In this document: positions 3,880 through 32,745 of the stretch, in pieces | How the letters are laid out: each line of letters begins with the position of its first letter | How positions within the stretch are numbered: position 1 is the first letter of the stretch | Origin: Pseudomonadota bacterium | GTDB lineage: Bacteria; UBA10199; 2-02-FULL-44-16; JBDRGF01 | Assembly (NCBI GenBank): GCA_043818055.1 | Contig: JBDRGF010000075.1 | Location: 1,733-65,732 of the forward strand | Reading direction: 5' to 3' | DNA: 64,000 bases | Made by a program: the position numbers and the translations under genes | The notes under the pieces: model-generated | The model's input: only the letters and a program-made list of their open reading frames with translations | Told to the model about the DNA's origin: nothing | The model's database searches: none

Positions 3880-3919
3880 CGTTTCCCCCTTCAGGATGGT
3901 CTTCTATGACTAAAAAAAA

Positions 3920-9205: not shown

Positions 9206-9267
9206 TATAGAGATTTTCGAAGCTCGAGCAAAAACAAATTAACCAATAACAAAGAAAGGAGAGGAAA

Positions 9268-9360
9268 ATGGAAGCATTAAAAAAGGGCATTACCGAAATT
9301 GAAATCGTCACAGAAGGCTCTGAAGAAGAGATGCTTTGGGGAGTTGTTGGTGGTAAGTAA
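9268..9360 (+). CDS. Putative RiPP precursor peptide A (30 aa): MEALKKGITEIEIVTEGSEEEMLWGVVGGK
   Basis: Strong RBS AAAGGAGAGG 7 nt upstream. It is a tandem paralog of ORF B and lies immediately upstream of radical-SAM genes. Acidic leader-like region plus a Gly-rich C-terminus carrying Trp and Lys. Confidence 0.6.
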   Translation: MEALKKGITEIEIVTEGSEEEMLWGVVGGK

Positions 9361-9389: not shown

Positions 9390-9488
9390 ATGGAAACGTT
9401 AAGAAAAGACATCAATGAAATTGAAGTTGTCACAGAAGGTTCCGAAGAGGAGATGCTTTGGGGCGTTGGCGGCAGCAAGAACAATTAA
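9390..9488 (+). CDS. Putative RiPP precursor peptide B (32 aa): METLRKDINEIEVVTEGSEEEMLWGVGGSKNN
   Basis: RBS AAAGGAGAGA. Shares 21 of 30 residues with peptide A, including the invariant EIE(I/V)VTEGSEEEMLWGV stretch. Confidence 0.6.
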   Translation: METLRKDINEIEVVTEGSEEEMLWGVGGSKNN

Positions 9489-13314: not shown

Positions 13315-13319
13315 TGTAA

Positions 13320-18200: not shown

Positions 18201-18343
18201 TATTCAGCGGTTCAGAGGCGCTGCAGCCGCTGGGAATAACGATAAGTTGCGGATTATTTGTTTCAACACTATTGATACTCTTTATCGTTCCCTGGCTACT
18301 CTATTGTTTGCCGAAGAAGAGAGTTGGGAAATCACAGTTATGA
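15290..18343 (+). CDS. RND-superfamily (AcrB/HAE-like) efflux transporter permease, 1017 aa
   Basis: The N-terminus SLRIPIELYPNATQTKITVQT matches the AcrB motif. Two 6-TM bundles are separated by large extracytoplasmic domains. Confidence 0.75.
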   Translation: MKRIYTERFYILSVAVIIILAGIYYSLRIPIELYPNATQTKITVQTHYKSLSPFAFKDRYGDLIEKELNGEGEFEEVDCKYQYEYAICRGKLPFGSDDHVILERVKNKLEPIFLSFPAEWKEAEVNFGDSNKGVLIIALYSKNIPLKKVYDEISPSINSFLSTHPDVSVGEVSNLFEKKISISIKPNVENKITKEMIFNQLSSSNNDIKTIGNISIEGNILSIEASSKLIESLDDLENFKLLTKQNEILKLKDIADVKIIPVEPNELFKGNNQNSLIVWVAPQAKANLVNFSDSIESKVKAEIKRFNGEVTAQTLLNPASFIRNAVKDILYSLIISVILSGIVVFLFLGSLKYSTVINLVMPLSLFGTILFMYILGIEVNLISMGAMAIAIGMVVDASIVVIENIFRHLQNTHPKDYSEKLGIYVKAVSEVKGALFSSTITTICVFVPLHYASPLVSAILGDVATVMTLSLFLSMIMAIFFVPSILLWINPDITQMENLKHKSNFLNRCFTNIQKYYSEAVKCFITNKVINVPIIITLLILFLLSLYLAVYKIDHELIATPTSDIIVFHRGNSKDVDSIATQEKDFHDTEREVFKLTSDYVDFTLTVLRKDLAMMLLHIKNEKYKETLKQLLIKKYKSSEKYEFKVVDWVPTQFEIPDPPQMKVLIGGASPAESKLIQAEVEKFILANSKTVRSYSIPTSLTSDEIIVDIDVEKLGYQNRIHGTSYSKKQILDILNFHAKEKYLRHMKFDGAKTAVFLESDYPKLKREKISSFSIPFGNGSLTLDKIADIKLVKSDSEIHSYNGGMQYEVDAFFSDKGFTYFDEFSTTLIHKFGKEKISTHYPYGLINDTINKLFWALAVSCLLVFLVVFLQYRNIYYTLIILMAIPTSVIGALISLYIFKSTLGMNALLGLILLSGISVNSTIIIIDFYDKIGSDDIADGIVQTMNLRLKPICMTAFTTVIAMVPIAVKLFSGSEALQPLGITISCGLFVSTLLILFIVPWLLYCLPKKRVGKSQL

Positions 18344-19578
18344 AAATGTTAGGCGCATTAAAATTGAACAGAAATTTTTGGCTGCTCATAACAGGCCAGT
18401 TCACATCGAATATCGGCAGCACAATTTCAGAGCTGGGAATATCTTGGCTCGTCCTCAAGGAGTACTCGATCACAGAGTTTACCATATTTTCCGGAATATG
18501 CTTGCTGCCAAGGGTTATTCTGACTCCTCTGTTAGCCCCCCTCTTTGAAAGGGTGAATAAGAAGTTGCTGATGATCTTGTCTGATATCGTAAAAGGCATC
18601 TGTTTGTTTACAATGTATCTGCTCTTTCTCACGAAGGGTCTCAGATACGAGTATATCGTTTCCTTGATGTTTGTTCACGGACTTGTCGGCGTTTTGTTCA
18701 GCATTGCGGTAGAACCTCTGTATTACGACATATTATCGTTGGACGAATATCCAAAGGGGACATCGCTCAGAGAATTATTTGGCCGCATGGCGCCTCTCAT
18801 CGGACCTTCAGCGACTGCCATAATAATGGCAATATCCGGAAACATCGGTCTTTTGCTTCTTATAGATTCAATTACTTTTTTTGTCTCAGCCCTTTGTATC
18901 GTTTTTATCCGCTTGCATATGAAAACAGACTTTGAAAAAACGCCCAAGACAACAGGGTTTAGTTCGTATGCTAAAAATCTGTTTCAGGGGTTGGCGTATG
19001 TCAGCAAAAACAAAAATCTGTTGATGCTCTTTACGTCGTTGATAGCGATTGGGTCTATGTTGGGGGTTTTGGCTTCAATAATGCCGATATACATACGGGA
19101 TCATCTCTCTTCGGGAGTTGTTGGGTTGAGTATTTTTCAGTTGATAGGTAATGCAGGCGCTATAATCGTAGCTATCGGATTGACGATTTGGCAGTACAAA
19201 AGCTCACATTCGAGTATATATTCCTTTGGCGTTGGCATCATTGGCATTGTCGTCATGGGGCTGGTCGTCACTTCAAATTTCTATGCAGCGACATTCATAT
19301 ACTTTTTGCTGCAGGTGACGATCACCATCGCAAGCTATGCGGCAAAAATCCTTTTACGGGAAAATATCGAAGATGACTACAAAACCAGGGCATATTCGTT
19401 GATGTCCATGGAGCAGCTGTTGCAACCGATAACCATCTCTCTGTCAGGGCTCGCAATAAAAGCAATCGGGATTGATAGCATCGTGATGATCATAGGTATT
19501 ACTATAATGATAATAGGGCTTGTTTTGTTGGTGATAAATTTTAAAACGAGTCTTGTTTTTTCCAGAATTTTGGACTGA
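18340..19578 (+). CDS. MFS transporter
   Basis: 12 predicted TM helices. Start chosen at ATG 18340 (MKMLGALKL...), overlapping the RND stop as ATGA. The longer track ORF starting at 18148 would overlap the RND gene. Confidence 0.65.
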   Translation: MKMLGALKLNRNFWLLITGQFTSNIGSTISELGISWLVLKEYSITEFTIFSGICLLPRVILTPLLAPLFERVNKKLLMILSDIVKGICLFTMYLLFLTKGLRYEYIVSLMFVHGLVGVLFSIAVEPLYYDILSLDEYPKGTSLRELFGRMAPLIGPSATAIIMAISGNIGLLLLIDSITFFVSALCIVFIRLHMKTDFEKTPKTTGFSSYAKNLFQGLAYVSKNKNLLMLFTSLIAIGSMLGVLASIMPIYIRDHLSSGVVGLSIFQLIGNAGAIIVAIGLTIWQYKSSHSSIYSFGVGIIGIVVMGLVVTSNFYAATFIYFLLQVTITIASYAAKILLRENIEDDYKTRAYSLMSMEQLLQPITISLSGLAIKAIGIDSIVMIIGITIMIIGLVLLVINFKTSLVFSRILD

Positions 19579-19594
19579 AATCCAGGATTCTGGA
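19561..19594. promoter_or_regulatory. Second pair of TCCAGGATTTTGGA-type palindromic sites, 20 bp apart, about 90-120 bp upstream of the second sigma-54 promoter
   Basis: tccagaattttgga (19561-19574) and tccaggattctgga (19581-19594) have the same consensus and the same spacing as the pair at 9080-9113. Confidence 0.5.
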
Positions 19595-19681
19595 CAGAAA
19601 ATTAGGATTTTATCCGGCTAAATTGACTGTGTAGTTGTGTAACCATATAAAATATAACGTTTTGTGTTTTTTCCTCCACTT

Positions 19682-19696
19682 TGGCACATGGATTGC
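19682..19696 (+). promoter_or_regulatory. Sigma-54 promoter TGGCAC-ATGGA-TTGCT upstream of the MFS / precursor C / methyltransferase operon
   Basis: Exact -24/-12 consensus. The flanks (cTTTGGCACa...aTTGCTATA) closely resemble the promoter at 9191. Confidence 0.7.
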
Positions 19697-19831
19697 TATA
19701 TATTTCAAAAAGTTAAGCAACAAGTTGTAATAGAGTGCGATAATGGTGGGGTAATATAAAGTTACGTAATGAAGTTTTTATATTCAAATTGAAATTGAAA
19801 TTTATTTTCTAATGAAACATGACTTACCGTA

Positions 19832-21076
19832 ATGATAATCAATGGTAAGAGGCATATGGTAAATAATAAAAACCTTTTACAGATATCCTACTTTATTAAT
19901 CAATTAGGTACTTATACAAGCTATCTTGCCATCATTGCAATAGCTCGGGAACACAATAATTCTATAAATTCTATTGCTATGGTATTGGGTGCTTCAGCGG
20001 CAGGGACAATGGTTGGGTGGCTTTTGACAATGAAATATCTTAAAAATGTGCACGCAAAACTTCTCCTTTCGTCATCGTTGATATTGTCAGGTTTGATGAT
20101 GGTATCAATTTTATGTCTGGTTAATTGGTGGCTAGTTGTTGCTGCTTTTTTTGTGTTAGGAATGTGTACCAATACCTACATGTCATCATTCTATACTTTA
20201 ATTCCCAGGATGATCAAAAAAACAGATGTGCCTAATATTAATCAGAACATTCAGATATTGTCTCAATTAGCCATAGTTATAGGTGCGATTTTGGGCGGCA
20301 TTTTGTTAGATCGGTTTGGGTTTAGGCTTCCGCTATTTGTTGATATTATTTCTTATTTATTAGTTGGGGTTGTTTATATGTGTCTTTCCCATAATAGATT
20401 TGTAATTTTATCAGCAGAGAAAGCGAATGATAATACGAAAGACCAAGAAGTGGTACGTCCAAAATGTCCATTTCAAAGGACATTGTTATTTTCTCCATTG
20501 GTGTTGGCTTTTCTGGTGGCTTTTGCTGCAGGTGCATATAATGTGATTGAAATTCCATTTTTCACCGATATTTTAGGGTTGCCCTATCGCTACATTGGAT
20601 TTTATTTTTCAATTTCGGTATTGGGAATTCCAGTTTTTCATGCTTTGGTACGTAAAAAGATGTTGCAAATGGAGTCGCTGCGATCCCTGTTTATCGGTAT
20701 TGCATTAGGTGGTTTGGTTTATTTAGTATGGGGTATGCAGAGCAGCTTATGGATAACTGGTCTTTTGTTAATTTTATTCAGCCTCTTTCAATTAGTTATA
20801 TTCACTTCAGTGAATAATTATCTACATGCCCATGTATTGGAAGATAATAAACTTCAAACGGTTTTTTCAACTTTGCAATTTGGGAGACGTGTGGCAGCTC
20901 TGCTGGGTAAATTAGCGATTCCCTTTATTGTAGGTTTTGCAGGAGAAAAATTTTCTTTTTCAGTGCTAGGTGTTATTATGATAATTGGATTGATTGTTGT
21001 TTTGATAACCAAAAGAGTGATAGAAGGAAGTATGAGTATTGTTGGAGATTTACAACAAAATGCCGCCGAATATTAA
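19832..21076 (+). CDS. MFS-type transporter (second)
   Basis: About 12 TM helices with typical MFS loop spacing. An alternative start exists at 19856. Confidence 0.6.
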   Translation: MIINGKRHMVNNKNLLQISYFINQLGTYTSYLAIIAIAREHNNSINSIAMVLGASAAGTMVGWLLTMKYLKNVHAKLLLSSSLILSGLMMVSILCLVNWWLVVAAFFVLGMCTNTYMSSFYTLIPRMIKKTDVPNINQNIQILSQLAIVIGAILGGILLDRFGFRLPLFVDIISYLLVGVVYMCLSHNRFVILSAEKANDNTKDQEVVRPKCPFQRTLLFSPLVLAFLVAFAAGAYNVIEIPFFTDILGLPYRYIGFYFSISVLGIPVFHALVRKKMLQMESLRSLFIGIALGGLVYLVWGMQSSLWITGLLLILFSLFQLVIFTSVNNYLHAHVLEDNKLQTVFSTLQFGRRVAALLGKLAIPFIVGFAGEKFSFSVLGVIMIIGLIVVLITKRVIEGSMSIVGDLQQNAAEY

Positions 21077-21095
21077 ATTAGAGAAAGGAGGAGGT

Positions 21096-21176
21096 ATGAA
21101 GCAAATGGATTTGCTTGGATTGGACAACATTGAAATTCAGCAAGAAGGATGTTGCCCTCAGGGAATTGACGGATAA
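21096..21176 (+). CDS. Putative RiPP precursor peptide C (26 aa): MKQMDLLGLDNIEIQQEGCCPQGIDG
   Basis: Strong RBS AAAGGAGGAGG 6 nt upstream. It shares the leader motif NIEIxxEG with peptides A and B. The CC-containing C-terminus sits directly upstream of the methyltransferase and the anSME-like radical SAM. Confidence 0.5.
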   Translation: MKQMDLLGLDNIEIQQEGCCPQGIDG

Positions 21177-21270
21177 TACATCAAGAATATTCATATTATT
21201 ATGAATCTATTATCCGGGGGATCTCATTGCTTTAGTCCCCCGGATAACATGATTCAAAAGGAGTGATGCG

Positions 21271-22281
21271 ATGAATCCTGTAAGTCAGATGAGAAGTTGG
21301 ATTAATTCTATGCACATTGCTAAGGCTGTTAATATTGGTGTTGAGGTGGGATTATTCGGTGTGATTGCTGAAATAAAATGTCCAACAACAGTTCAAGAAC
21401 TAGCCAGGCAAGCTTGCTGTGATCAGGGATATGTAGAATCCTGGATACATGTTATGCAAGCGGCAGGAATTATTGATGTTGATCAAAATGGTCATCTGTC
21501 GTTTGTTAGTGACTGGAAGGAAGCCCTTACAGATCGAGATAGTGATAAATATGTGCCGCCGATGATGGAATGTCATTTCGCTATTGCAGATACCTATCCG
21601 AGATTTGCAAAATTTTTTAGAAATGGAAATTGCATGCATTCAAATGAATTCAGTGAACCACTGCTGGTCGGTATTGCTGCGGATGCAGTGCGATTTGCAA
21701 ACTATTTTTTGCATGTAGCTGTGGATAAGATTCCAGATTTGAAGCTAAAACTGGAAGAAGGAATAGATGTTTTAGACGTGGGTTGTGGTGGCGGGCAATT
21801 TCTTTCAAAAATAGCAACACAATTTCCAAAGTCGCGCTATGTAGGTATCGACCCGTTAGATAAAGTTATTGATATGGCTAGGGAGGAGGCCAAACATTAT
21901 AAAGTAGAGAGTAGAGTAGATTTTATTGTCGGTTGCGGTTCCGAAATCAAAAAGGAATGTGCTGATTTAATAATTCTTAATGAAGTACCTCACGAAATGG
22001 ATGCTAAAGTAAGACAACCGGTGCTGGATGCTTGTTGTAAAGCATTGAAAAAGGATGGTCTTTTGTTTCTGGTTGATATTTTGGCCCCCGAAAATGCCGG
22101 GGATTATGTACGGCCTAATTTCTTATTATCATCACTAGTTCAGTTTTTTGAAAAACCATGGGGTTCAAAATTGTTGACATACTCAGAATTGAAAATCTTA
22201 ATTAGAAATGCAGGTTTTTCGGATTTGACACACTTGGTGTCAGCAGATGATGTAGTTGTCGCATATACAAAACCCATATAG
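21271..22281 (+). CDS. Class I SAM-dependent methyltransferase (O-methyltransferase-like, with N-terminal dimerisation/winged-helix-like region)
   Basis: IDVLDVGCGGGQF is the glycine-rich SAM-binding motif I. A downstream acidic motif LIILNEV is present. Confidence 0.75.
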   Translation: MNPVSQMRSWINSMHIAKAVNIGVEVGLFGVIAEIKCPTTVQELARQACCDQGYVESWIHVMQAAGIIDVDQNGHLSFVSDWKEALTDRDSDKYVPPMMECHFAIADTYPRFAKFFRNGNCMHSNEFSEPLLVGIAADAVRFANYFLHVAVDKIPDLKLKLEEGIDVLDVGCGGGQFLSKIATQFPKSRYVGIDPLDKVIDMAREEAKHYKVESRVDFIVGCGSEIKKECADLIILNEVPHEMDAKVRQPVLDACCKALKKDGLLFLVDILAPENAGDYVRPNFLLSSLVQFFEKPWGSKLLTYSELKILIRNAGFSDLTHLVSADDVVVAYTKPI

Positions 22282-22289
22282 ATATATTA

Positions 22290-23522
22290 ATGAAAAAAAA
22301 TTATCATAATATTTTAGTTGATGGAAAAAAAATTCGTTTTTATCCCGATGAAATGTTATTTTATAAAGGCAGTTCATTTCCGAAGGATGTGGATAAAGAT
22401 AGAAATGTGAGGCCATCCGTTTGTAAATCGGTAAAGATCGCAAACAGCAGGAAACTACAACTGGCGTTGACAATCACTAAGAGCTGCAACATGAAATGTA
22501 CATATTGCTATGATAAGAAAAATATGAATATTTCTTCTAATTCGAAAAATATGCATTTTAGTACACTATGCGATGCAGTGAATAAGTTTTGTAATAGCAG
22601 GATTGGTAATTACAATATACATTTCATAGGTGGAGAGCCGCTTTTATGTCTGGATTTAATCAAACAAACTGTAGATTATTGCAATAAGAAGGCTGCAATT
22701 GATAGCTCGGTATTTACATATAGTATTTCGACTAACGGTACAATAATTGACAAAGCCATAGCAAAGTATTTTTCCGAAAATAAAATTAAAATAAGATTAA
22801 CCTTTGATGGTGTAGAAGAATCTCAGAATGTCAATCGACCGATGCGCAATCGGGAGCAGAGCTTTTCTCATGTGGTACGATCGTTATCAAATCTAAGAAA
22901 TGCAAGTTGTGATTTTAGTGTTATATCTGTACTTCATCCCAATTTTCTTCATAAAATGCTTAAAGCTTTTGAAAATATAATTCAATACAATCCAAATGCG
23001 ATAAAATTTGTTCCTCTAATAAATATAGATGCGCTTGGATGTAAGTATGTCAGTGATCATAGTGTCATGTTTGCAGAATCTCTTCGGAATATCGCTAATC
23101 AATTGATCAGTAGAAAAGATGAAAAAACAATTATGAAAATTAAGAATATAAGCGTGTATTTGCCTTATATTCATAATCGTATAGCGAACATCAAGGGGTG
23201 TATTGCAGTTAATAAACAATCATATGCAGTGAATGTAGATGGTTCTGTGTATCCATGCTCAACCTTTGTTGGTATAGATACTCATCGTTTGGGGATGATA
23301 AATGATTATGAACTCAATCCTAATTCCATAAAATGTGAATCAATAACGACGAGATGTTTATCCTGCTGGGCACGAACATTATGTCCTGGAGTATGTGCTT
23401 ATACTGCCGATAATAATTCAGCATGCTCATCAGCAATGAATTGTGAGTTTATAAAAGGAGAGATTACTGTTGCTTTGGAAGTATATAGCAAGTTGTATCC
23501 TCATAAAATTAGAAGGGAGTGA
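22290..23522 (+). CDS. Radical SAM/SPASM protein of the anSME/thioether-forming maturase family
   Basis: LTITKSCNMKCTYCYD is the CX3CX2C motif. The C-terminal SPASM-like stretch is CESITTRCLSCWARTLCPGVCAY. Confidence 0.75.
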   Translation: MKKNYHNILVDGKKIRFYPDEMLFYKGSSFPKDVDKDRNVRPSVCKSVKIANSRKLQLALTITKSCNMKCTYCYDKKNMNISSNSKNMHFSTLCDAVNKFCNSRIGNYNIHFIGGEPLLCLDLIKQTVDYCNKKAAIDSSVFTYSISTNGTIIDKAIAKYFSENKIKIRLTFDGVEESQNVNRPMRNREQSFSHVVRSLSNLRNASCDFSVISVLHPNFLHKMLKAFENIIQYNPNAIKFVPLINIDALGCKYVSDHSVMFAESLRNIANQLISRKDEKTIMKIKNISVYLPYIHNRIANIKGCIAVNKQSYAVNVDGSVYPCSTFVGIDTHRLGMINDYELNPNSIKCESITTRCLSCWARTLCPGVCAYTADNNSACSSAMNCEFIKGEITVALEVYSKLYPHKIRRE

Positions 23523-23531
23523 CGAATTGCC

Positions 23532-24716
23532 ATGAATAACCTAATAAAAAAAGCATTTCAACTTTGCTGTTTTTTAATTATCATACTAATACCATTTTAT
23601 ATTCAAGCGGATCAAAATATTACAATAGCGCTGGTGAATAATTTTTCGGATTTTAGATCTCCATGTGGTGATCCTAAAGGAGAAAACTTTTTGAATGCTT
23701 TGAATTTAGCATTGGAAGATTTTTTAAAAGATCATAAAAAATATTCAGATCAAATAATACTTAGAAAATATGATTATGGTAATTCACCACTTAATACGGA
23801 ACGTATTACATTAGAAGCTGTTCGCTCCGATGCAGTAGCATTAATTGGATATCCATGCTCTAGTTTTGCTCTTCTTGCTGCTCCAATAGCTGAGGCGCAC
23901 AATGTTGCTATGATTACGCCATCGGCTACAATTGATTCATTAACCGAGAGTCGTGAATATGTATATCGCGCTTCATTTAGGGATGAAGATCAAGCTAAAG
24001 TTATGGCGGAATTTCTGGCAAATGATCTGGATAAGAAAAAGGCTGTAGTTATTGTTAATCAGAATTACCCATATTGCACTAATTTATCAGAGCAATTCCA
24101 GCATTATTTTAAAAAATATGGAGGAAAGATTGTAAAAGTGTTTAACACGCTTTCGAGCCAAAAAAGCTATAATAAAGAAGTAAATGAAATGAATCACTTA
24201 TCATATGATGTAGTTTTTATTCCTAATCATGAAATGGAGAGCGCTACTATGGTTAAAGAAATATATAATTTGAGTATGGAAACCACTGTTGCTGGTGGAG
24301 ACGGATGGGGGAATTTGTATGGGTATATTTTTCCTGCTATAGTTGGAAATAAAAAAATTGATGCGTATGCAATTGCTCATTGGAATCGTGATTCTGTTGA
24401 CACTAGTTCAAAAGAATTTCAGAAAAGGTATTATAATCGTTTTGGATTTTATCCAAACGATAATTCAGCATTAGCTTATGATGCTATGAGTCTGCTTTTA
24501 CATGCAATATCTAAGGCGAAAAAAATAAATAGGAAAGAAATCAACGCAGAGCTCAAATCAATCCGGTCTCATTTCGGTGTAACTGGGAGATTCTCTTATA
24601 ATCGAGGTAATGGAACGCCTTCAAAAAATGTTTATATAGTAAAATATCCTCAACCCAATTTGTCTCATGAAGGTGATCGTAGATTTGAGCATTACAAGAG
24701 TGTTATCGTAAAATAA
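23532..24716 (+). CDS. Periplasmic substrate-binding protein (type I PBP, Leu/Ile/Val-binding / ANF-receptor-like), secreted
   Basis: Has a signal peptide, and its architecture and length fit type I PBPs. It sits directly upstream of, and is translationally coupled to, the sensor kinase. Confidence 0.6.
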   Translation: MNNLIKKAFQLCCFLIIILIPFYIQADQNITIALVNNFSDFRSPCGDPKGENFLNALNLALEDFLKDHKKYSDQIILRKYDYGNSPLNTERITLEAVRSDAVALIGYPCSSFALLAAPIAEAHNVAMITPSATIDSLTESREYVYRASFRDEDQAKVMAEFLANDLDKKKAVVIVNQNYPYCTNLSEQFQHYFKKYGGKIVKVFNTLSSQKSYNKEVNEMNHLSYDVVFIPNHEMESATMVKEIYNLSMETTVAGGDGWGNLYGYIFPAIVGNKKIDAYAIAHWNRDSVDTSSKEFQKRYYNRFGFYPNDNSALAYDAMSLLLHAISKAKKINRKEINAELKSIRSHFGVTGRFSYNRGNGTPSKNVYIVKYPQPNLSHEGDRRFEHYKSVIVK

Positions 24717-24717
24717 T

Positions 24718-26499
24718 ATGCAGCTTAAATTGAGTCATAAAATAAACTTCTATTTTATTTTAATCATGCTTCTGGTGACGCTATGTTCTGTTGTATTTAT
24801 TTTTTACATGGCAAAAGTTGAACGCAGTAAGCAAATCGACATGGCGGTTTCTAAAATGAAAAATATAGCTGCTATTGAATCAGAAGATATTATTGCTCAA
24901 ATTCTTTTTCATTCATACTCGTCACTCGATCTAATAAGTAAAAAAATTCTAGAAGAAAACAAAAATATATTTGTTGATATTCGACTTAATGATTTTGTTA
25001 CAGGAAATGAATTGAAATATAAATATTGTATTCCTGATAATAATGGAGTGTGCTACAACAGGGATGATGATGTGCTTCAATTCGTATATTCCTTGAATTA
25101 TGGAGGTAAGGATTTAGGAAGCCTCATCATGGCACAACAGATGGGTTCTTTCACTATGCTGATTAAGCCATCAGTATCAGTAATTGTATTATTTGCATCC
25201 TTGGTAACAATAGCGATGCTCGGAATGTTTATGTTCTTTATCAGAAAAAATATCAGTCAGCCAATCAATATATGTATTCGATCATTTTCAGAAATTAAAT
25301 CTGGGAAGAGAAAAAATATTCCAAAAATGAATACTCGCGATATGAATATACTAGTTGAAAATATTAATTCACTTATGGAAGATTTAGGAATATTTCAAAA
25401 AATTGCTGAAAGAAATACACATTTAGCCGCCATAGGACAAATATCATCCCACGTCGCACACGATATGCGATCGCCGCTGTCTGTCATACAGGGATATCTG
25501 CGGGGAAATCAAAAAAACATGAAACTTCTCGAAGCAGCAAAGGGAAGCGCAAATAAACTGAATAACATGGCCGATGAACTATTGGATTATGCCAAGGCCT
25601 CGAAGATTGAGCCGGTTGCAACATCGTTAAAAAGCCTCGTTGAAACCACCGTCAGCAAAGAGGTTAAAAATATCGCCGATGAAAAGGGTGTAAAGCTTAT
25701 TTATGATGTGAGGGATGATGTTGTTGCTAAGATAGATCATTACCGAATGGAACGTGTCCTGACCAACCTCATCACGAACGCCGTTCAGGCGATTGATGCG
25801 GAATCAGGTGAGGTAAAAGTTTCTGTTAAATCAGACAACGAAAATCTCAAAATAACAGTTACAGATAATGGCAGGGGAATAAGCAAAGAAGATCAGAAAA
25901 AGATTTTCGATAGCTTTTTCACAAAGGGAAAGATGAGAGGGACAGGCCTTGGGCTCTCATATTGCAAAAACGTCATAGAGGCACATGGGGGCGCTATTGC
26001 AGTAGAGAGTGAAGTTGGAAGAGGAACAGAGTTTTCGATTAATATTCCATCTTGTATTACAACACCACATGCCACATGCTACATACCACATGCTGTCCCT
26101 AGCCATCAGACATCAGCGGTCAGCGGTCAGCCGACAAAAGGCGAGTTGGACTCGGATAACGACATCCTCGTCGTCGATGATGATGTGGGAATAATTTTAA
26201 TATGGTGTGGCCTGATAGAGAAGAAAACAGGAAAACCGCCCATAACCGCAAAGAGCCCTGAAGAGATGATGAAAGCCAAAATCGATTACAGCAGGGTATC
26301 AAAGGCGATTGTTGACTATCAATATGAGGGAAGTAAGCTCACCGGCCTCGATGTCGTACAATTTTTGAAAGAGAAGGGCGTGCAGGTGATCCACATGTGC
26401 ACGGGGATGTATCACGATGAAGAATTGCAATCGCAGGCGAGAAAGTTAGGCGTTGCTTCGATCATACCTAAGCCTATTAGCGCCGATACGAATATTTGA
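24718..26499 (+). CDS. Sensor histidine kinase (two TM helices, periplasmic loop, HisKA + HATPase_c) with a degenerate C-terminal receiver-like extension
   Basis: H-box SHVAHDMRSPLSVIQGY. N/G boxes ITNAVQAID, TDNGRGISKEDQKKIFDSFFT, GTGLGLSY. The C-terminus DILVVDDDVGI...IVDYQ resembles a receiver domain. Confidence 0.8.
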   Translation: MQLKLSHKINFYFILIMLLVTLCSVVFIFYMAKVERSKQIDMAVSKMKNIAAIESEDIIAQILFHSYSSLDLISKKILEENKNIFVDIRLNDFVTGNELKYKYCIPDNNGVCYNRDDDVLQFVYSLNYGGKDLGSLIMAQQMGSFTMLIKPSVSVIVLFASLVTIAMLGMFMFFIRKNISQPINICIRSFSEIKSGKRKNIPKMNTRDMNILVENINSLMEDLGIFQKIAERNTHLAAIGQISSHVAHDMRSPLSVIQGYLRGNQKNMKLLEAAKGSANKLNNMADELLDYAKASKIEPVATSLKSLVETTVSKEVKNIADEKGVKLIYDVRDDVVAKIDHYRMERVLTNLITNAVQAIDAESGEVKVSVKSDNENLKITVTDNGRGISKEDQKKIFDSFFTKGKMRGTGLGLSYCKNVIEAHGGAIAVESEVGRGTEFSINIPSCITTPHATCYIPHAVPSHQTSAVSGQPTKGELDSDNDILVVDDDVGIILIWCGLIEKKTGKPPITAKSPEEMMKAKIDYSRVSKAIVDYQYEGSKLTGLDVVQFLKEKGVQVIHMCTGMYHDEELQSQARKLGVASIIPKPISADTNI

Positions 26500-26522
26500 A
26501 TTCGCTGAGATGGGAGGCAAAG

Positions 26523-27929
26523 ATGAACAAAGATTATACGATACTCTGTGTTGACGATGATGAGAATTTTCTTGTTCAGCTGGAGAGTATATTTGCGGAT
26601 TACACAGTTTTCAAAGCGACATGCATGGATGATGCCCTGTCGATCATAGACCGGAACGATATCAATACAGTTCTATTGGACATCAGCCTCAACGGCGAGG
26701 ATGGTCTGGATGGGTTGAACCTGATTAAAAAAAGAAATTCGTTCATCGATGTCGTGATGGTGACAGGCCATAGGGACACCGAATATATAGTGAAGGCGAT
26801 TCAAAGCGGCGCGAGCGATTATGTGTTGAAGCCTGTGGATCAGGGAGCGTTGCTCGCGTGCGTGGAAAAATCGAAACAATCCAAAAAAGAAAAGGAAAAA
26901 TATAATGCTCTGCTCTGTGAGTTGAATTCAGCGGATATCGCTTCGAGGATTGTCGGCAGGAGCGCGGAGCTCTCAAAAATTCTGAATATAGCAAAGAAGG
27001 TGAAGGGACATCACAGGGCAAACATCCTGATCGAAGGAGAGAGCGGCACGGGAAAGGAACTCCTGGCGCGCTACATCCACAGGCTTGAGGAGAATACAAG
27101 GCGACCGTTCATTGCGATCAATTGTGCTGCTATTCCGGACAATCTTATAGAATCAGAATTGTTTGGCCACGAAAAAGGAGCTTTTACCGGTGCGATTGGC
27201 AAGAAGATAGGGAAATTCGTTCTTGCTGACAAAGGTGATATCTTCCTTGATGAAATCAGTTCACTAAAACCTGATCTGCAGGCAAAATTATTGCGCGTGT
27301 TTCAGGAAAAGGAATTTTGTCCCCTTGGCGGCAACGATCCAGTGAAATCGGATTTCAGGGTGATCGCCGCGACCAATGAAAATCTGGAGGAGCTGGTGAA
27401 TTCAGAAAAGTTCAGGCTCGATCTCTATCATCGCATGAAGATCGTCAATCTCTACATGCCTCCACTTCGCGACCGGAAGGATGATATAGAAGAGCTTGCT
27501 CAACATTTCCTCAGAAAATATTCAGATGGGAAAAGGGGTTTGAAAATTGCAGATAAAGCAATCGCAATATTAAAGGAATATTCCTGGCCCGGAAATGTGA
27601 GAGAACTGGAAAATATAATACACCGGGCAATCGTCCTCGCTGAGGGCTATATGCTTTCGGAGAAGGATTTTTCGCATTTGCTAACCCCTTCCTCAGCCTG
27701 CATCAATGAAGGGCAGTCCACGCCCTTTATACAATTGTTTTCGGAGATATCGCCCAAACTCTCCGGCAATGTGATGCCGCTTAAGGATTATGTCATGAAG
27801 GCCGAGACCGAATATTTAAAAGAGGTGCTCGATCTCAAGGCCGGCAACAAAGACGAGGCAGCTGTTTCTCTCAAGATGAGCCGTTCGAGTTTTTATTCAA
27901 AATTGAAACAATGCGGTTTTTTAACATGA
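26523..27929 (+). CDS. Sigma-54-dependent Fis-family response regulator (NtrC-like enhancer-binding protein)
   Basis: Receiver domain (CVDDDENF...LLDISL). AAA+ sigma-54 activation domain with Walker A GESGTGKE, the GAFTGA motif and ESELFGHEKGAFTGA. C-terminal HTH. RBS GGGAGG lies ahead of ATG 26523 (the track ORF begins at 26496). Confidence 0.85.
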   Translation: MNKDYTILCVDDDENFLVQLESIFADYTVFKATCMDDALSIIDRNDINTVLLDISLNGEDGLDGLNLIKKRNSFIDVVMVTGHRDTEYIVKAIQSGASDYVLKPVDQGALLACVEKSKQSKKEKEKYNALLCELNSADIASRIVGRSAELSKILNIAKKVKGHHRANILIEGESGTGKELLARYIHRLEENTRRPFIAINCAAIPDNLIESELFGHEKGAFTGAIGKKIGKFVLADKGDIFLDEISSLKPDLQAKLLRVFQEKEFCPLGGNDPVKSDFRVIAATNENLEELVNSEKFRLDLYHRMKIVNLYMPPLRDRKDDIEELAQHFLRKYSDGKRGLKIADKAIAILKEYSWPGNVRELENIIHRAIVLAEGYMLSEKDFSHLLTPSSACINEGQSTPFIQLFSEISPKLSGNVMPLKDYVMKAETEYLKEVLDLKAGNKDEAAVSLKMSRSSFYSKLKQCGFLT

Positions 27930-28027
27930 ATTGATTATCTTTTAGTTTATCGCCACTTTTCGTTGCATTCCCTTTTACAGTTAGCTAAATGGAATTGATC
28001 ACAATTTCAAAACATAGGAGGGCATCG

Positions 28028-28762
28028 ATGACTAACACCTTTGATCATCTCTTTCTGATGGGGCGGCCTGCTGCTGGAAAATCCGAATTCATAGATTTCA
28101 TGAAAAAAGTTACAGACGAGGAGAGGGCGAAGAAATTTCATATCGGCCATTTTACCGAGGTCGATGATTTCGTCTGGCTTTGGGAGAAGTTCATGGAGGA
28201 TCACCTCTGGGAGGAGGTCGGTTGTGAGAGGCTCTATTCATTCAATGAGGATGACAACCCGGGACTTAAGCCCGACAAGGGAAAGCTCTTCGATATGATG
28301 ATAGCCAAGATCGATCATATAGTTCGTGATAATTTTTTATCGAAGGCCGATTTTTATTCTCAAAATACCCTGATAATCGAGTTCGCGAGGGGGATGGAAA
28401 CGGGATATAAACATTCATTCGATCTTATCAAAAGTGATCTTTGGGATAAAGCCGCGATTTTGTATGTTGAGGTCGATGGTGCGGAATCATGGAAGAGGAA
28501 CGTCGCAAGGTACGAGGAGAAGCTCAAACATTCGATATTAGCCCATATGGTTCCGAAAAAGACCTTCGATGCCTTTTATTCGCATGATGACTGGCACGAT
28601 CTTACTGAGAATAAGAGGGAGGGTTATTTAAACCTGAAGGGAATTGAAGTCCCATTTGTTACGATGAACAACTGTCCGGAGTCGACAGATCCGGCTGTGT
28701 TAAGCCCCCGTTACGGTCAAGCGCTCGATAACCTCATGGAATTGAAGGAGAAACTAAAATAA
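28028..28762 (+). CDS. P-loop NTPase/kinase-like protein, paralog 1 of 3
   Basis: Walker A LMGRPAAGKSEF. Conserved C-terminus VPFVTMNN.PESTDP..L.PRYG. RBS AGGAGGG lies ahead of ATG 28028 (the track ORF begins at 27989). Confidence 0.6.
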   Translation: MTNTFDHLFLMGRPAAGKSEFIDFMKKVTDEERAKKFHIGHFTEVDDFVWLWEKFMEDHLWEEVGCERLYSFNEDDNPGLKPDKGKLFDMMIAKIDHIVRDNFLSKADFYSQNTLIIEFARGMETGYKHSFDLIKSDLWDKAAILYVEVDGAESWKRNVARYEEKLKHSILAHMVPKKTFDAFYSHDDWHDLTENKREGYLNLKGIEVPFVTMNNCPESTDPAVLSPRYGQALDNLMELKEKLK

Positions 28763-28785
28763 TCAGCTGAAGGGAGTCTTTCGGG

Positions 28786-29508
28786 ATGAAATATTTTAAA
28801 AATCTTTTTGTTTTAGGCCGTCCTGCCTGTGGAAAATCAGAATTTCTGGATTTTATGCGAAATAAGATCTCGGATGATGAGAGGCAGGATATCTATCACA
28901 TAGGAAAAATGAAGGTGATGGATGATTTCGTGTGGCTCTGGGAAAAATTCGAAGACGACGATATCTGGGAAAAGGTCACGGGGAAAAGATTTCATTCCAA
29001 CAGAGATGGACATCTATATAATGCGAGGAGCGCGATTCTATATAATTTTTTGACCGAGCGTTTGAGCGAAGAGGTAAAAAAGAATTTAAAAGATCAGGAG
29101 TTTTATAATTCAGGGACGTTGTTGATCGAATTCTCAAGGGGAGGAGAATGTTCTTATAAGGATGCCCTCAATCGCTTTGACCCCGAGGTGCTTAAAAGTT
29201 CTGCGATATTGTATATGGAGGTGGATGGGGCCGAGTCGTGGAGGAGAAATGAGGCGCGTTATCAGGAAAAGTTAAAACACTCGATTCTGGCCCACAAAGT
29301 TCCGAGAGAGACCTTCGATACATTTTATTCCTTTGATGACTGGGATGCGCTCACTGGAAAAAAACGCGATGGTGAGCTTGATCTTCAGGGGGTCAGAGTT
29401 CCATTTGTTACGATGAATAACACCCCCGAATCAACTGATCCAGGTGTTTTAGCGCCAAGATATGGCGATGCCCTGAACCGCCTGATGGATGTTTTCAACA
29501 AGAGATAA
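28786..29508 (+). CDS. P-loop NTPase/kinase-like protein, paralog 2 of 3
   Basis: Walker A LGRPACGKSEF. About 50% identical to paralogs 1 and 3 and collinear with them along its whole length. Confidence 0.6.
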   Translation: MKYFKNLFVLGRPACGKSEFLDFMRNKISDDERQDIYHIGKMKVMDDFVWLWEKFEDDDIWEKVTGKRFHSNRDGHLYNARSAILYNFLTERLSEEVKKNLKDQEFYNSGTLLIEFSRGGECSYKDALNRFDPEVLKSSAILYMEVDGAESWRRNEARYQEKLKHSILAHKVPRETFDTFYSFDDWDALTGKKRDGELDLQGVRVPFVTMNNTPESTDPGVLAPRYGDALNRLMDVFNKR

Positions 29509-29530
29509 TCAACGAAAGGAAATTTCAACC

Positions 29531-30259
29531 ATGAACCATTTTAAAAATCTCTTCGTTCTTGGAAAACCCGCCTGCGGCAAATCTGAATTGTTGGATTTTA
29601 TGACGAATAAGATCAGCTCAGAGGAGAGGTCTAAGATCTATCATATCGGAGAGATGAAAGTTATGGATGATTTTGTCTGGCTTTGGCAAAAATTTATCGA
29701 GGATAATCTCTGGGAGCGTTTGATCGGAAAGAGATTTCATTCAAAAAGGAGCGGAAATTTGCACATAGTCGATGACGCTTCTCTATATGATTTCATGATT
29801 GAAAAGCTGAATATTGAGGCGAAAAAACTTCTTAAGAATGATGGTTTTTATGACGAACACACCCTCTTGATAGAGTTTGCCCGTGGAGGAGAGAAGCCCT
29901 ATCTTCCTGCCATGAACCGATTCGATTCGGAAGTGCTGAAGTCATCTGTGATACTCTATGTAGATGTCTCCGCTGAGGAGTCGAGGCGAAGGAATGAAGC
30001 TCGTTATCAGGAGAAGCTTAAACACTCTGTGCTATCACATAAATGTCCCGATGAGGATATGGAGCGCTTTTATCAGTCAGATGACTGGGCCGCGATAACA
30101 GGAGGTAAGGTTGATGGCTTCTTGAAACTTAATGGTGTCGATGTTCCTTTTGTCACCATGAACAATGAACCTGAGAGTAAAGATCCTGTCATATTAGGCC
30201 CAAGATATAAAAAGGCATTGGATCTCCTCTATGAGCTTTATCAAAAAAATACCCTCTGA
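29531..30259 (+). CDS. P-loop NTPase/kinase-like protein, paralog 3 of 3
   Basis: Walker A LGKPACGKSEL, same family. RBS AAAGGA lies ahead of ATG 29531 (the track ORF begins at 29489). Confidence 0.6.
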   Translation: MNHFKNLFVLGKPACGKSELLDFMTNKISSEERSKIYHIGEMKVMDDFVWLWQKFIEDNLWERLIGKRFHSKRSGNLHIVDDASLYDFMIEKLNIEAKKLLKNDGFYDEHTLLIEFARGGEKPYLPAMNRFDSEVLKSSVILYVDVSAEESRRRNEARYQEKLKHSVLSHKCPDEDMERFYQSDDWAAITGGKVDGFLKLNGVDVPFVTMNNEPESKDPVILGPRYKKALDLLYELYQKNTL

Positions 30260-30468
30260 TTGCTATTTTTTTTCAAAATTCATTTATATCTCTTGCTTAA
30301 AGGATATTTTTTTCCTATAGAGTCACCAGTTGTGTTGGGGGAAAACACCACAACTATTCATAAAAATATAATAAAAATGTCCTTTAAACCTTTACATTTA
30401 GAGCGTTTCCTATTAATAATTTCTTCTTATAGAGCTATAAGAATTTATAACCTTACCCTGGAGGATCT

Positions 30469-31626
30469 ATGAGTTTAAAAGCCTATCTCAATAAAAAAGT
30501 TGCTGCCTGTGGCATAGCAGCGCTTTGCTTCGGCTATTTTGCCTCTTATGTTCCCTATTCGATGATGACCAAGATGGTAACCAAGGGTCTTTTCACAGGG
30601 ATGGACGGGACAGGTTATTCAGGCTTTGCGATTCAACCCATCGCAGTTTTGGGAAGCTTTGTTGCGATGTATTTGTTCATAACGCTGAAGGGCTGGTGGA
30701 AGTTTGCGACTCAGTGGAAAGTGGGAGGTATTTCGTTGCCGCGTCCGAGGTGGTTCACCTTTTTGTCAGGGCTTTGCACGGCAGGTATCATAGTTACAAC
30801 AACCTTATCTTATTCATTCAGCGGAATAAGCATAGTTTTCGCGATGCTTCTGATGCGTGGTGGCGTGTTGATCATAGCCCCCGTCGTAGATCTGTTTTCC
30901 AGGAGAAAGAGAAAAATCTATTGGCCGTCGCTCGTGGCATCCTTTCTCAGCGTCGGCGCTTTGCTCGTTGCCTTCTCTGGAAACGCAGGAACTGCTATGA
31001 CAACCGTTGCAGCGATCGACATCGCATGTTATTTGGGATGCTACTTTTTAAGGCTCACATTCATGAGCAACAAGGCCAAGTCGAACGACATCGCGGAGAA
31101 GAGAAGATTTTTCACCGAGGAGCAGATGGTGGCGAACCCTGTTTTGTTAGTAGCGCTTTTAATCGTTGGATTGATCGGCTCGACGATGAGTCCGGATTCT
31201 ATGCCGGGACTTATCTGGACTGGCTTTTCCAAAGTGCCTTTTGAAGGTTTCTTCTTCACGGTATTACTTATCGGCATATTCTCATACGGGACGGGTCTCT
31301 TTGGCAGTCTGATATTCCTCGATAAACGCGAACACACGTTCTGTGCCCCTGCAAATAGATGCTCAAGCATCGTTTCCGGAGTGATCGCCACATACCTTTT
31401 GGCCATCTTTTATGGTCAGAAATATCCCAGCACACTTCAGATCATAGGTGTTGCCCTGATCATCGGTGCTATTCTCTTCTTGATGTATCGAGCTGTGATG
31501 GAGAGGAGAAGAAAGGGTGCGGCATCGTGTATCACATGCACGCCAGATACACCTGAGATCACAGAAGAGAGCGAAGAGGAGACGACAGAGGGCGGAAAGT
31601 TGCTATGTGATCCTCTGAAGGCTTGA
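30469..31626 (+). CDS. Polytopic membrane protein (about 10 TM helices, transporter-like) with an acidic C-terminal tail
   Basis: The hydrophobicity pattern shows about 10 TM segments. The C-terminus is ITEESEEETTEGG. No confident family assignment. Confidence 0.5.
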   Translation: MSLKAYLNKKVAACGIAALCFGYFASYVPYSMMTKMVTKGLFTGMDGTGYSGFAIQPIAVLGSFVAMYLFITLKGWWKFATQWKVGGISLPRPRWFTFLSGLCTAGIIVTTTLSYSFSGISIVFAMLLMRGGVLIIAPVVDLFSRRKRKIYWPSLVASFLSVGALLVAFSGNAGTAMTTVAAIDIACYLGCYFLRLTFMSNKAKSNDIAEKRRFFTEEQMVANPVLLVALLIVGLIGSTMSPDSMPGLIWTGFSKVPFEGFFFTVLLIGIFSYGTGLFGSLIFLDKREHTFCAPANRCSSIVSGVIATYLLAIFYGQKYPSTLQIIGVALIIGAILFLMYRAVMERRRKGAASCITCTPDTPEITEESEEETTEGGKLLCDPLKA

Positions 31627-31650
31627 TAAGATTTTGATGATTTTTTATTG

Positions 31651-31683
31651 CGGCCGGTGTTATAAAGACACCGGCCGTTTTTT
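31651..31683 (+). terminator. Rho-independent terminator after the membrane-protein gene
   Basis: cggccggtgt-tataaag-acaccggccg forms a 10-bp GC-rich stem, followed immediately by TTTTTT. Confidence 0.8.
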
Positions 31684-31977: not shown

Positions 31978-32745
31978 CTAAAAATCAAAATCATCGAGAC
32001 TTGGAATCCCCTCATCTACGATAACCGGTTCTTCGCGCTTTGGAGTTGGTCTTGGGCGGGCGCGCCTTGGGGCAGGTTTTGAAAAGCCGTGTCTGTATAG
32101 TGGCAGATCGTCGCTGTTTCCTTCGACAACATTTATTCTATGGCCGCTTTGAGCTTCCCATTTTTTTAGTCCCTTTTCGAGCAACGGTTGATTGAGCGAC
32201 CAGAGAAGGTTGTGTTCCCCCTGAAGCTTTTGCTCTGAGAAGAGGCGATAGCTGATGGAGAAGGTCTGAAATCCGGTTTCGTCAGGGCCACCCCATATGA
32301 TGAAGCTCGCCGGCTCCTGAATCTGAATCCTGATCGGGTTGTCCGGATCAGATTCCGTTCGCAGAAAACCTACGATATTGAGATTGAGTCGAGACACCCA
32401 GAGTGGCTGTTTTAGCTTTTTCAAAACAAGCATGAACTCGTCGAGGAATGTCATCTGGTTGAGGTTGTCGCGTGTGATCTGTTCGGAGGCATTATATGCG
32501 GTGACCTCGAGGTTATCCGGCACGACAAGGCCAAACATAGCGCGCAGGAAATTGAATACCTGCTCAAAGAACCAGACATTCGATTCATCCTTGGACATTC
32601 TTGTGAAATCGACACCGGAATCAAATCCCCATGTGCCGACTATATGGCCCTTTTTTTTCGCCTGCTCCAGATAGTCATCAAGTCCGGTCGGAACCCTGAT
32701 CCGGGATCGTGATGAAGGCTTTGGTCTTGGTCGTCTTCTGATCAT
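31978..32745 (-). CDS. Hypothetical protein (255 aa) with Arg/Pro-rich termini
   Basis: Clean ORF with no recognised domains. Start and stop are well placed relative to neighbouring genes. Confidence 0.45.
   Translation of the reverse strand: MIRRRPRPKPSSRSRIRVPTGLDDYLEQAKKKGHIVGTWGFDSGVDFTRMSKDESNVWFFEQVFNFLRAMFGLVVPDNLEVTAYNASEQITRDNLNQMTFLDEFMLVLKKLKQPLWVSRLNLNIVGFLRTESDPDNPIRIQIQEPASFIIWGGPDETGFQTFSISYRLFSEQKLQGEHNLLWSLNQPLLEKGLKKWEAQSGHRINVVEGNSDDLPLYRHGFSKPAPRRARPRPTPKREEPVIVDEGIPSLDDFDF

Follow-up and report, generated by a model that had tools for sequence, protein, structure and literature searches.

Tandem paralogs of a P-loop kinase family and a DMT-fold transporter as a candidate transport-coupled phosphorylation module beside a RiPP-like island

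Three tandem genes for paralogous P-loop kinases, K1, K2 and K3, and the gene that follows them, encoding a membrane protein of drug/metabolite transporter (DMT) fold, were analysed in a 64,000-nucleotide stretch of the genome of a Pseudomonadota bacterium (assembly GCA_043818055.1, contig JBDRGF010000075.1), called here the window; the contig, of 74,077 bp, belongs to a metagenome-assembled genome. The explanation that we favour, with a probability of roughly one half, is that K1 to K3 and the DMT protein constitute a conserved transport-coupled module whose kinases phosphorylate a nucleoside-like or nucleotide-like substrate. This module is best seen as unlinked to two upstream neighbours that it merely abuts in this genome, namely a sigma-54 regulator and an island of genes of the kind found with ribosomally synthesised and post-translationally modified peptides (RiPPs).

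In the mechanism that we propose, the transporter would import or exchange a nucleoside-like or nucleotide-like, probably anionic, metabolite, and K1 to K3 would phosphorylate it with ATP, leading to its trapping or salvage. The paralogs may act as a hetero-oligomer of alpha and beta subunits, or each may catalyse a step of its own, consecutive or parallel, with its own specificity, and K3 would be a lineage-specific extra copy of beta type. Several observations taken together favour this mechanism: the kinases persist across lineages in which the transporter type changes (DMT, organophosphate:phosphate antiporter (OPA)-like protein of the major facilitator superfamily (MFS), or another MFS protein); genes for adenosine deaminase, 5'-nucleotidase, SurE and pseudouridine enzymes lie nearby in related loci; a partner domain fused to the kinase resembles thymidylate kinase and deoxynucleoside kinase (dNK); the kinase folds match nucleoside and nucleotide kinases; and the DMT protein is SLC35-like. 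The analysis shows that the kinases are paralogs, which motifs and fold class they have, that a transporter gene accompanies them in related loci, that their domains occur fused, and that RiPP genes do not accompany them elsewhere; catalytic activity, substrate, transport direction and oligomeric state are inferred.

Three collinear kinase genes

All three genes lie on the forward strand and are supported by an open reading frame (ORF) and a ribosome-binding site. K1 (28028 to 28762, 244 residues) is a P-loop kinase paralog of 'position-1' or alpha type and is preceded by AGGAGG-N6-ATG with the ATG at 28028. K2 (28786 to 29508, 240 residues) is of 'position-2' or beta type and is preceded by GAAGGGAG-N9-ATG with the ATG at 28786. 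K3 (29531 to 30259, 242 residues), which appears to be a later duplicate of beta type, is preceded by AAAGGAAA-N9-ATG with the ATG at 29531. An initial reading of the DNA made without database searches (the sequence-only reading) had described three collinear tandem genes at 28028 to 30259, just after a sigma-54 regulator, and this span agrees with ours. Of the protein lengths of 240 to 257 residues that it gave, the upper ones cannot be retained, the values of 257 and 256 residues arising from in-frame ATGs located upstream of the starts that bear a ribosome-binding site.

The mutual identity of about 50% noted in the same reading was recovered in pairwise BLASTP comparisons, which gave 53% for K1 and K2 (E value 1e-90), 48% for K1 and K3 (2e-78) and 64% for K2 and K3 (4e-114). 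The two motifs that it listed are likewise present in all three copies: a Walker A motif (GRPAAGKSEF in K1, GRPACGKSEF in K2 and GKPACGKSEL in K3) and the C-terminal block VPFVTMNN(C/T/E)PES(T/K)DP. A search of the window with a hidden Markov model (HMM) of the family detected K1 to K3 as its sole copies, with a score of 383 bits for K1. In the NCBI annotation the three genes and the transporter gene carry the locus tags ABIE74_06260 to ABIE74_06275, and those of the four that the searches returned, K1 (ABIE74_06260) and K3 (ABIE74_06270) among them, are called 'hypothetical'.

Predicted fold and conserved residues of the kinases

The K2 protein was modelled with AlphaFold2 from an alignment of 36 sequences, with a mean predicted local distance difference test score (pLDDT) of 94 and a predicted TM-score (pTM) of 0.91. 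Comparing this model by Foldseek with the PDB and with a library of viral models retrieved only P-loop kinases of the nucleoside or nucleotide type, with TM-scores of 0.4 to 0.57 and identities of 10 to 16%. They included adenosine 5'-phosphosulfate (APS) kinase, deoxycytidine kinase (dCK), UMP-CMP kinase, adenylate kinase, O-phosphoseryl-tRNA kinase (PSTK), dephospho-CoA kinase, dNK and thymidylate kinase. The Foldseek probability was 1.00 for APS kinase, dCK, adenylate kinase and UMP-CMP kinase, with TM-scores of 0.41 to 0.55. The viral library gave nothing past the generic kinase fold, and no close solved structure was found for the family by PDB sequence and Foldseek searches. As judged from the model, K1 to K3 belong to the P-loop kinase superfamily, with a fold like that of nucleoside monophosphate kinases and dNK, and this assignment holds at the superfamily level only. 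The motifs, the model and the nature of the Foldseek matches bear out the description 'P-loop kinase-like' given in the sequence-only reading.

Conservation was counted over 131 family domains drawn from all loci, using the numbering of K2. Fourteen residues are invariant in 131 of 131 domains: G11, G16, K17, S18, E19, D46, D47, F48, E115, G119, E150, N155, R158 and H170. The first five of them belong to the Walker A motif, whose sequence agrees with the pattern GxxxxGK[ST]. Seven other residues, R118, R153, R154, D185, N212, E215 and R225, are kept in 96% or more of the domains. These positions fall into motifs, namely a DDF that ends strand 2, E115-x-x-R118-G119, E150-S151, an arginine-rich lid (R153-R154-N155-x-x-R158), D185-W186, N212-E-P-E215 and R225-Y226. 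Conservation of the lid arginines R153, R154 and R158 together with D46 and D47 is consistent with a predicted ATP-dependent phosphoryl transfer. In P-loop kinases of established mechanism, such as APS, shikimate and deoxynucleoside kinases, it is usually an acidic residue following strand 2 that activates the acceptor hydroxyl. The many conserved arginines would suit an anionic substrate.

None of the copies looks like a dead enzyme, because K2 and K3 carry all the conserved residues and K1 departs from them only by a lysine at R153. We considered whether one paralog could be a pseudokinase or a regulatory subunit; this was ruled out by the conserved residues of all three, the R153K change of K1 being conservative.

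A kinase family without a database assignment

Searches of K1 to K3 against Pfam and NCBIfam detected nothing at the cut-offs. Zeta_toxin (PF06414) stayed below its gathering score (16.7 bits for K1, cut-off 22.3), as did AAA_33 (PF13671; 14.3 bits for K3, cut-off 27), and the Pfam scan of K2 matched neither of them at all. A weak PPK2 match reached 13 bits in the NCBIfam and Pfam scans, and dNK (PF01712) was not matched by any of the three proteins in the Pfam scan. PADLOC and PHROGs scans were empty but for a chance-level match of K3 to VakA (E value 0.004). Searching the PDB sequences, either by phmmer with a single sequence or with a profile of 36 sequences, gave nothing below an E value of 0.3, with only GTPase matches at chance level. 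The sequence-only reading had left the family unassigned, which these searches confirm, and had named a confident placement in a housekeeping kinase family as one half of what would speak against its proposals; no sequence-level membership of the adenylate, gluconate, shikimate or APS kinases was found in Pfam, NCBIfam or PDB relatives.

The family itself is readily delineated. It has 775 homologues in a set of 5.8 billion proteins, all 'hypothetical' and none with a Pfam domain, and an exhaustive profile search yielded 611 clusters at 50% identity (E value below 1e-3). Among GTDB species representatives, 165 relatives were found, and all the loci returned come from metagenome-assembled genomes (MAGs). 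Their hosts are delta-like lineages (a term that we use for genomes labelled Deltaproteobacteria, Pseudomonadota, Myxococcales or Bdellovibrio), Acidobacteriota (Vicinamibacterales), Bipolaricaulota or 'Thermotogae', and Chloroflexia. One cultured Chloroflexota strain has a family copy on a 180-kb replicon. No copy was found in phages and essentially none on plasmids. Identity across phyla (Acidobacteriota, delta-like lineages, Bipolaricaulota) is 44 to 64%.

The transporter protein

The transporter gene (30469 to 31626, forward strand) encodes a protein of 385 residues with about 10 transmembrane helices, identified from its AlphaFold2 model, from Foldseek and from its neighbourhood. It has 921 homologues at roughly 60 to 80% identity, some of which are annotated 'DMT-like permease' at JGI. 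The model (pLDDT 81.6) displays about ten long helices, and its best Foldseek match is human SLC35B1 with bound ADP or AMP-PNP (12% identity; TM-scores for the ADP-bound form 0.55 and, on the target, 0.69). It is followed by Vrg4, a GDP-mannose transporter, by the triose-phosphate/phosphate translocator (TPT), by PfCRT and by the CMP-sialic acid transporter (CST), with YddG and LicB ranked lower. The Foldseek probability is 1.00 for SLC35B1, Vrg4, TPT, CST, YddG and LicB. A Pfam scan of the protein assigned no family and gave no EamA, TPT or NST match; one of its homologues has a weak match to DUF7103. On the basis of the model, the protein belongs to the DMT superfamily at the level of the fold.

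Between K3 and the transporter gene lies an AT-rich spacer of 209 nucleotides (30260 to 30468), which contains a sigma-70-like promoter match, TTTACA-18-AATAAT, at 30391 to 30420 on the forward strand. Other co-directional loci have no such gap, the start of the transporter gene adjoining or overlapping the end of the kinase array. The spacer contains imperfect inverted repeats, pairing 30236-30255 with 30301-30320 and 30194-30211 with 30283-30300. An Rfam search over the whole window gave no match, and so no recognisable riboswitch in the spacer. The unit is closed at 31650 to 31678 on the forward strand by a hairpin resembling an intrinsic terminator, with a stem of 12 bp, of which 8 are GC, and a run of T. 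Further on, a 255-residue ORF (31978 to 32745, reverse strand) with ends rich in proline and arginine is convergent on the transporter gene; it has no Pfam match and is not conserved beside the kinases elsewhere.

Conservation of the kinase-transporter neighbourhood

About 85 related loci were compared by a strict clustering of neighbours, by gene maps and by gene-called contigs. Of the 32 loci of the delta-like group, 18 encode a homologue of the 385-residue protein next to the kinases, in either a co-directional or a convergent orientation. In 9 to 10 delta-like loci a binding protein of the PhnD family, scoring above the TIGR01098 cut-off, is found at the array, and in 9 there is a Metallophos enzyme with a signal peptide. 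In one of these loci, L085, the order on a single strand is binding protein, kinase, kinase, membrane protein. We also observed, in L085 (8248-11861) and in L003, L007, L015, L019, L036, L040 and L089, that the PhnD-family binding protein is encoded directly beside the DMT-like gene, in a neighbourhood devoid of ABC permease and ATPase genes. This orphan protein and the DMT protein may form a binding-protein-dependent DMT transporter, of which we know of no described example.

The transporter differs in the other lineages. In Acidobacteriota, the array is followed by an OPA-like MFS gene in 17 of 22 loci, whose best NCBIfam matches, below the cut-offs, are the organophosphate:phosphate antiporters PgtP, GlpT and UhpC, and an adenosine-deaminase-family gene comes after the MFS gene, also in 17 of 22 loci. 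A delta-like locus (L014) combines three kinases with an OPA-like MFS. The Chloroflexota strain ZRK35 has a single kinase copy with a generic MFS gene 15 nucleotides downstream.

NuoF-like, GltD-like and CitF proteins were also considered as functional partners and were discarded: they recur only in closely related delta-like MAGs and were treated as lineage synteny. A tblastn search of the window for homologues of the PhnD-like, Metallophos, CitF, Fe-S oxidoreductase, OPA-like MFS and adenosine deaminase proteins found them all absent.

A profile search detected a sister subfamily of about 325 residues, which keeps every family motif and has a helical insertion of about 85 residues (P0319, E value 1e-24; P0490 shares 25% identity with K2, E value 1e-13). 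It comprises about 3,900 proteins, mostly from Elusimicrobia, with one cluster of 987 members, and none of those returned has a Pfam domain or any name but 'hypothetical'. Four of its genomic contexts were sampled. In two of them (L091, 1561-7975; L093, 1734-7975) the sister gene lies directly behind a same-strand operon coding for a PhnD-like binding protein, an ABC ATPase, two permeases and a 5'-nucleotidase with Metallophos and 5_nucleotid_C domains. One of these contexts has SurE upstream; the other has PfkB and Indigoidine_A downstream, a pair of the pseudouridine kinase and glycosidase type.

Copy number, paralog types and natural fusions

Of 84 loci scanned with the family HMM, 35 have a single copy, 42 have two and 7 have three, and arrays of two to three tandem copies prevail among the delta-like and Acidobacteriota loci. 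In a neighbour-joining tree, calculated without support values, the proteins encoded at position 1 of the arrays tend to cluster and those of position 2 fall in separate clades. K1 groups with Acidobacteriota and with several delta-like position-1 proteins, while K2 and K3 are both placed within the delta-like position-2 clade. Mean identities to the proteins of related arrays follow the same division: 56% to position-1 and 52% to position-2 proteins for K1, and 59 to 61% to position-2 (59% for K2) and 48 to 52% to position-1 proteins for K2 and K3. Because of this tree placement and of these identities, the window appears to contain an old alpha/beta pair and a younger beta duplicate, K3.

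Kinase domains of the family also occur fused in a single chain. P0241 (752 residues) contains three family domains, and P0242 (503 residues) and P0243 (421 residues) contain two each. The first domain is the most divergent in these three fusions, with KNQPAP in place of NNEPES, and in P0242 it has GKSP in place of GKSE. In addition, a Bipolaricaulota or 'Thermotogae' gene product of about 435 residues has as its N-terminal 195 residues a second compact P-loop kinase domain (EGLPAxGKSE), which aligns to the family by hhalign with a probability of 89.6% and an E value of 2e-6. This domain has weak thymidylate-kinase, dNK and adenylate-kinase matches, the dNK match being below threshold (19.5 versus 27 bits). 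The natural fusions, like the multi-copy arrays and the clades specific to array position, support a joint action of the paralogs.

The RiPP-like island and the sigma-54 regulator

Upstream of K1, a sigma-54 enhancer-binding response regulator is encoded at 26496 to 27929 (Sigma54_activat, E value 4e-63) and ends 98 nucleotides before K1. Perfect matches to a sigma-54 promoter occur in the window at 3919 (reverse strand), 9191 (forward) and 19682 (forward). The interval from 27930 to 28027, directly before K1, contains no match to TGGCAC-N5-TTGCW with up to two mismatches. The kinase and transporter genes are regarded as a unit apart from the regulator because K1 is not preceded by a sigma-54 promoter and the transporter gene is followed by a strong predicted terminator. 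The enhancer-binding protein probably regulates the promoters of the island rather than the kinase genes.

The island itself (9503 to 27929) is organised as two units driven by predicted sigma-54 promoters. The perfect match at 9191-9206, TGGCACAATAATTGCT, is followed by two paralogous small ORFs, at 9268-9360 (MEALKKGITEIEIVTEGSEEEMLWGVVGGK) and 9390-9488 (METLRKDINEIEVVTEGSEEEMLWGVGGSKNN), which stand just before a radical SAM/SPASM gene at 9503 and are likely to encode RiPP precursor peptides. The first unit includes a radical SAM-SPASM protein, another radical SAM protein, a TldD/PmbA peptidase, a B12-dependent radical SAM protein, an efflux pump of the resistance-nodulation-division (RND) type and an MFS protein. 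The second, after the promoter at 19682-19697, includes an MFS protein, a methyltransferase, a radical SAM-SPASM protein, a Peripla_BP_6 binding protein, a hybrid histidine kinase and the sigma-54 enhancer-binding protein. GC content is 0.31 to 0.37 across 10-25 kb and 0.42 to 0.48 from about 25.6 kb on. It rises from about 0.31 to about 0.46 within the histidine-kinase gene (24718 to 26499, in the interval 24700-26200), the sensor half being island-like and the catalytic half, like the enhancer-binding protein gene, core-like. This step could mark a recombination junction or simply reflect more GC-rich conserved domains.

The island genes do not accompany the kinases elsewhere. None of the window's SPASM or other radical SAM, TldD, RND, MFS, methyltransferase or periplasmic binding protein genes was found near the family in other loci; the sole matches to island genes were a generic B12-dependent radical SAM protein (31% identity) in 2 loci, the enhancer-binding protein in 2 and the histidine kinase in 2. 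The sequence-only reading had suggested that the kinases could serve the RiPP-like locus, in a tailoring or self-immunity role, and had offered nucleotide metabolism as a third possibility. The other half of what it had named as speaking against its proposals was synteny conserved away from RiPP genes, and such synteny is what we observe. Together with the lack of a sigma-54 promoter before K1 it leaves the first two roles unsupported, and nucleotide metabolism is the one that fits the comparative evidence best.

Weighing of the possible functions

Several points weigh against uptake and phosphorylation of a nucleoside or nucleotide. The substrate is deduced by comparison. According to the models, the likeness to known kinases is at the superfamily level only, with TM-scores of about 0.5, and that of the transporter to SLC35B1 is at the fold level only, with 12% identity. 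The MFS of Chloroflexota ZRK35 is not OPA-like, and the fused forms of Bipolaricaulota have no adjacent transporter, their neighbours being an M19 dipeptidase, a Kbl-like enzyme, rpoD and rpoB. The kinase and DMT genes of many delta-like loci run towards each other and are not co-transcribed. The two remaining contexts of the sister subfamily are uninformative. As to independence from the upstream genes, co-transcription of K1 with the regulator is possible because the gap is of 98 nucleotides and no terminator is predicted in it. Finally, the PhnD-like and Metallophos neighbours equally fit the scavenging of phosphorus from another organophosphate.

This last point leads to the main rival, a phosphorus-acquisition module whose kinases would have as their substrate an imported phospho-compound or alcohol other than a nucleotide (phosphoglycerate-like, glycerophospho- or phosphonate-related). 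We regard it as unlikely while taking it seriously. The recurrence of PhnD-family proteins and secreted Metallophos enzymes beside the arrays speaks for it, as do the resemblance of the acidobacterial MFS to PgtP, GlpT and UhpC, the presence of TPT among the best fold matches of the DMT protein, and the invariant DD after strand 2, which by analogy with the mechanisms of APS, shikimate and gluconate kinases suggests a hydroxyl acceptor. The adenosine-deaminase, 5'-nucleotidase, SurE and pseudouridine genes and the thymidylate-kinase/dNK-like fused domain indicate nucleosides or nucleotides instead, and no phosphorus-starvation gene is found among the window neighbours. It is less probable that the kinases inactivate a toxic small molecule, such as an antibiotic or a nucleoside analogue, that the DMT or MFS protein exports. 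P-loop antibiotic kinases exist, chloramphenicol phosphotransferase being one; the sub-threshold Zeta_toxin and AAA_33 matches point the same way, many DMT and MFS proteins are exporters, the Chloroflexota neighbour resembles an MFS of the drug:H+ antiporter type, and in the window the kinases have a probable antimicrobial-peptide cluster as their neighbour. However, the cross-phylum identity of 44 to 64% and the Bipolaricaulota copies near rpoD and rpoB look like core metabolism, and neither the distribution of the family, absent from phages and essentially from plasmids, nor the other loci, devoid of RiPP or antibiotic genes, resembles that of a resistance function.

We consider it improbable that the proteins are kinases or NTPases acting on a macromolecule or in regulation (an RNA or DNA 5'-kinase, a polyphosphate-linked enzyme or a protein kinase), with the paralogs as a scaffold and the transporter as an incidental neighbour. 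Pnkp1, PSTK and polynucleotide kinases do figure among the fold matches, PPK2 is weakly matched and the Bipolaricaulota copies lack a transporter neighbour; yet those fold matches are no better than the small-molecule kinase matches, adjacency to a transporter recurs in three lineage groups with separate kinase genes and involves three transporter families, and no nucleic-acid-binding or repair partners were seen among the neighbours. A role as tailoring or self-immunity kinases for the upstream radical SAM/SPASM cluster under sigma-54 control is very improbable. Proximity, with K1 so close behind the regulator, is what speaks for it; the near-absence of island genes at other loci, the location of the perfect sigma-54 promoters ahead of the RiPP operons (9191 and 19682) and not of K1, and the distinct composition of the island all argue against it. 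To our knowledge, moreover, the known RiPP kinases have a protein-kinase fold and not a P-loop fold.

For the transport-coupled phosphorylation of nucleosides or nucleotides, a more specific version, a so far unrecognised bacterial system for scavenging nucleotides, can be put forward tentatively, although its full detail is doubtful. An SLC35-like DMT exchanger, assisted in some lineages by the orphan PhnD-like protein, would import nucleotides derived from a host, from prey or from the environment, and a new-family kinase, hetero-oligomeric with an alpha/beta or alpha/beta/beta' composition, would convert them. If so, lineages that are largely uncultured (delta-like MAGs, Vicinamibacterales, Bipolaricaulota) would have in this module a way of acquiring nucleotides or energy other than the NTT/Tlc transporters found in obligate intracellular bacteria. 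More generally, the question bears on how the carrier lineages obtain nucleotides or phosphorus. Our favoured explanation, if true, offers a working hypothesis and a testable assay for proteins now called 'hypothetical', from several hundred up to a few thousand in number and mostly from poorly known and largely uncultured phyla. It would also suggest that the eukaryotic SLC35 nucleotide exchangers have a counterpart in bacteria and that the kinase requires two or three paralogous subunits or domains, and for annotation it would put K1 to K3 outside the boundaries of the RiPP cluster.

Other features of the window

The third sigma-54 match, at 3919-3934 on the reverse strand, is located upstream of a 179-residue ORF (3340 to 3879, reverse strand). 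An 884-residue ORF at 4329 to 6983 has no Pfam match. A diadenylate cyclase of the CdaA type (7129 to 8349), which combines DAC, CdaA_N and YbbR in one ORF, lies beside a TrkA_C-domain protein (8362 to 9129, reverse strand).

Comparison with known systems

A literature search for a described kinase-transporter system of this kind returned nothing relevant. The closest logic is that of PnuC-NadR, in which nicotinamide riboside is taken up and then phosphorylated: here too the gene of a secondary transporter stands beside that of a P-loop kinase for small molecules, by which the compound taken up would be trapped. The present module differs by its DMT or MFS protein in place of PnuC and by its multiple kinase paralogs. 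On the transporter side, the predicted ten-helix DMT fold is common to the SLC35/NST-TPT branch, the best matches being nucleotide or organophosphate exchangers with TM-scores up to 0.69 on the target. The 385-residue protein is distinguished from this branch by an identity of 11 to 13%, by the lack of Pfam EamA, TPT or NST matches, by its bacterial origin and by its frequent association, in related loci, with a PhnD-like binding protein.

The APS, adenylate and UMP-CMP kinases give the best Foldseek E values for the kinase model (5e-5 to 1e-4) and share with it the Walker A motif and an arginine-bearing lid, as well as, in APS kinase, the acidic residue after strand 2. The TM-scores of 0.41 to 0.46, the identities of 10 to 14%, the lack of HMM-level membership and a length greater by about 50 residues set K1 to K3 apart from them. 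The dNK family, represented by human dCK and deoxyguanosine kinase (dGK), shares the P-loop kinase fold, and dCK gives the top TM-scores (0.50 to 0.55). The ExxR(G) motif of the kinases resembles the 'ERS' motif of dNK, and the arginine-rich lid is likewise similar. Tandem-encoded paralogs that plausibly pair are a further likeness, the deoxyadenosine kinase (dAK)/dGK and dAK/dCK of Lactobacillus being tandem-encoded heterodimers. In contrast, Pfam dNK misses the window proteins and their identity to dCK is 13 to 16%; an extra beta-hairpin (residues 71-80), C-terminal strands, the invariant motifs DDFxWLW, HxxP, DDW and NNEPES, arrays of up to three copies and triple fusions are features of their own. 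The novelty of K1 to K3 is at the level of the family, within a well-known superfamily, and it is their multi-paralog or fused architecture, together with the transporter partner, that is unusual.

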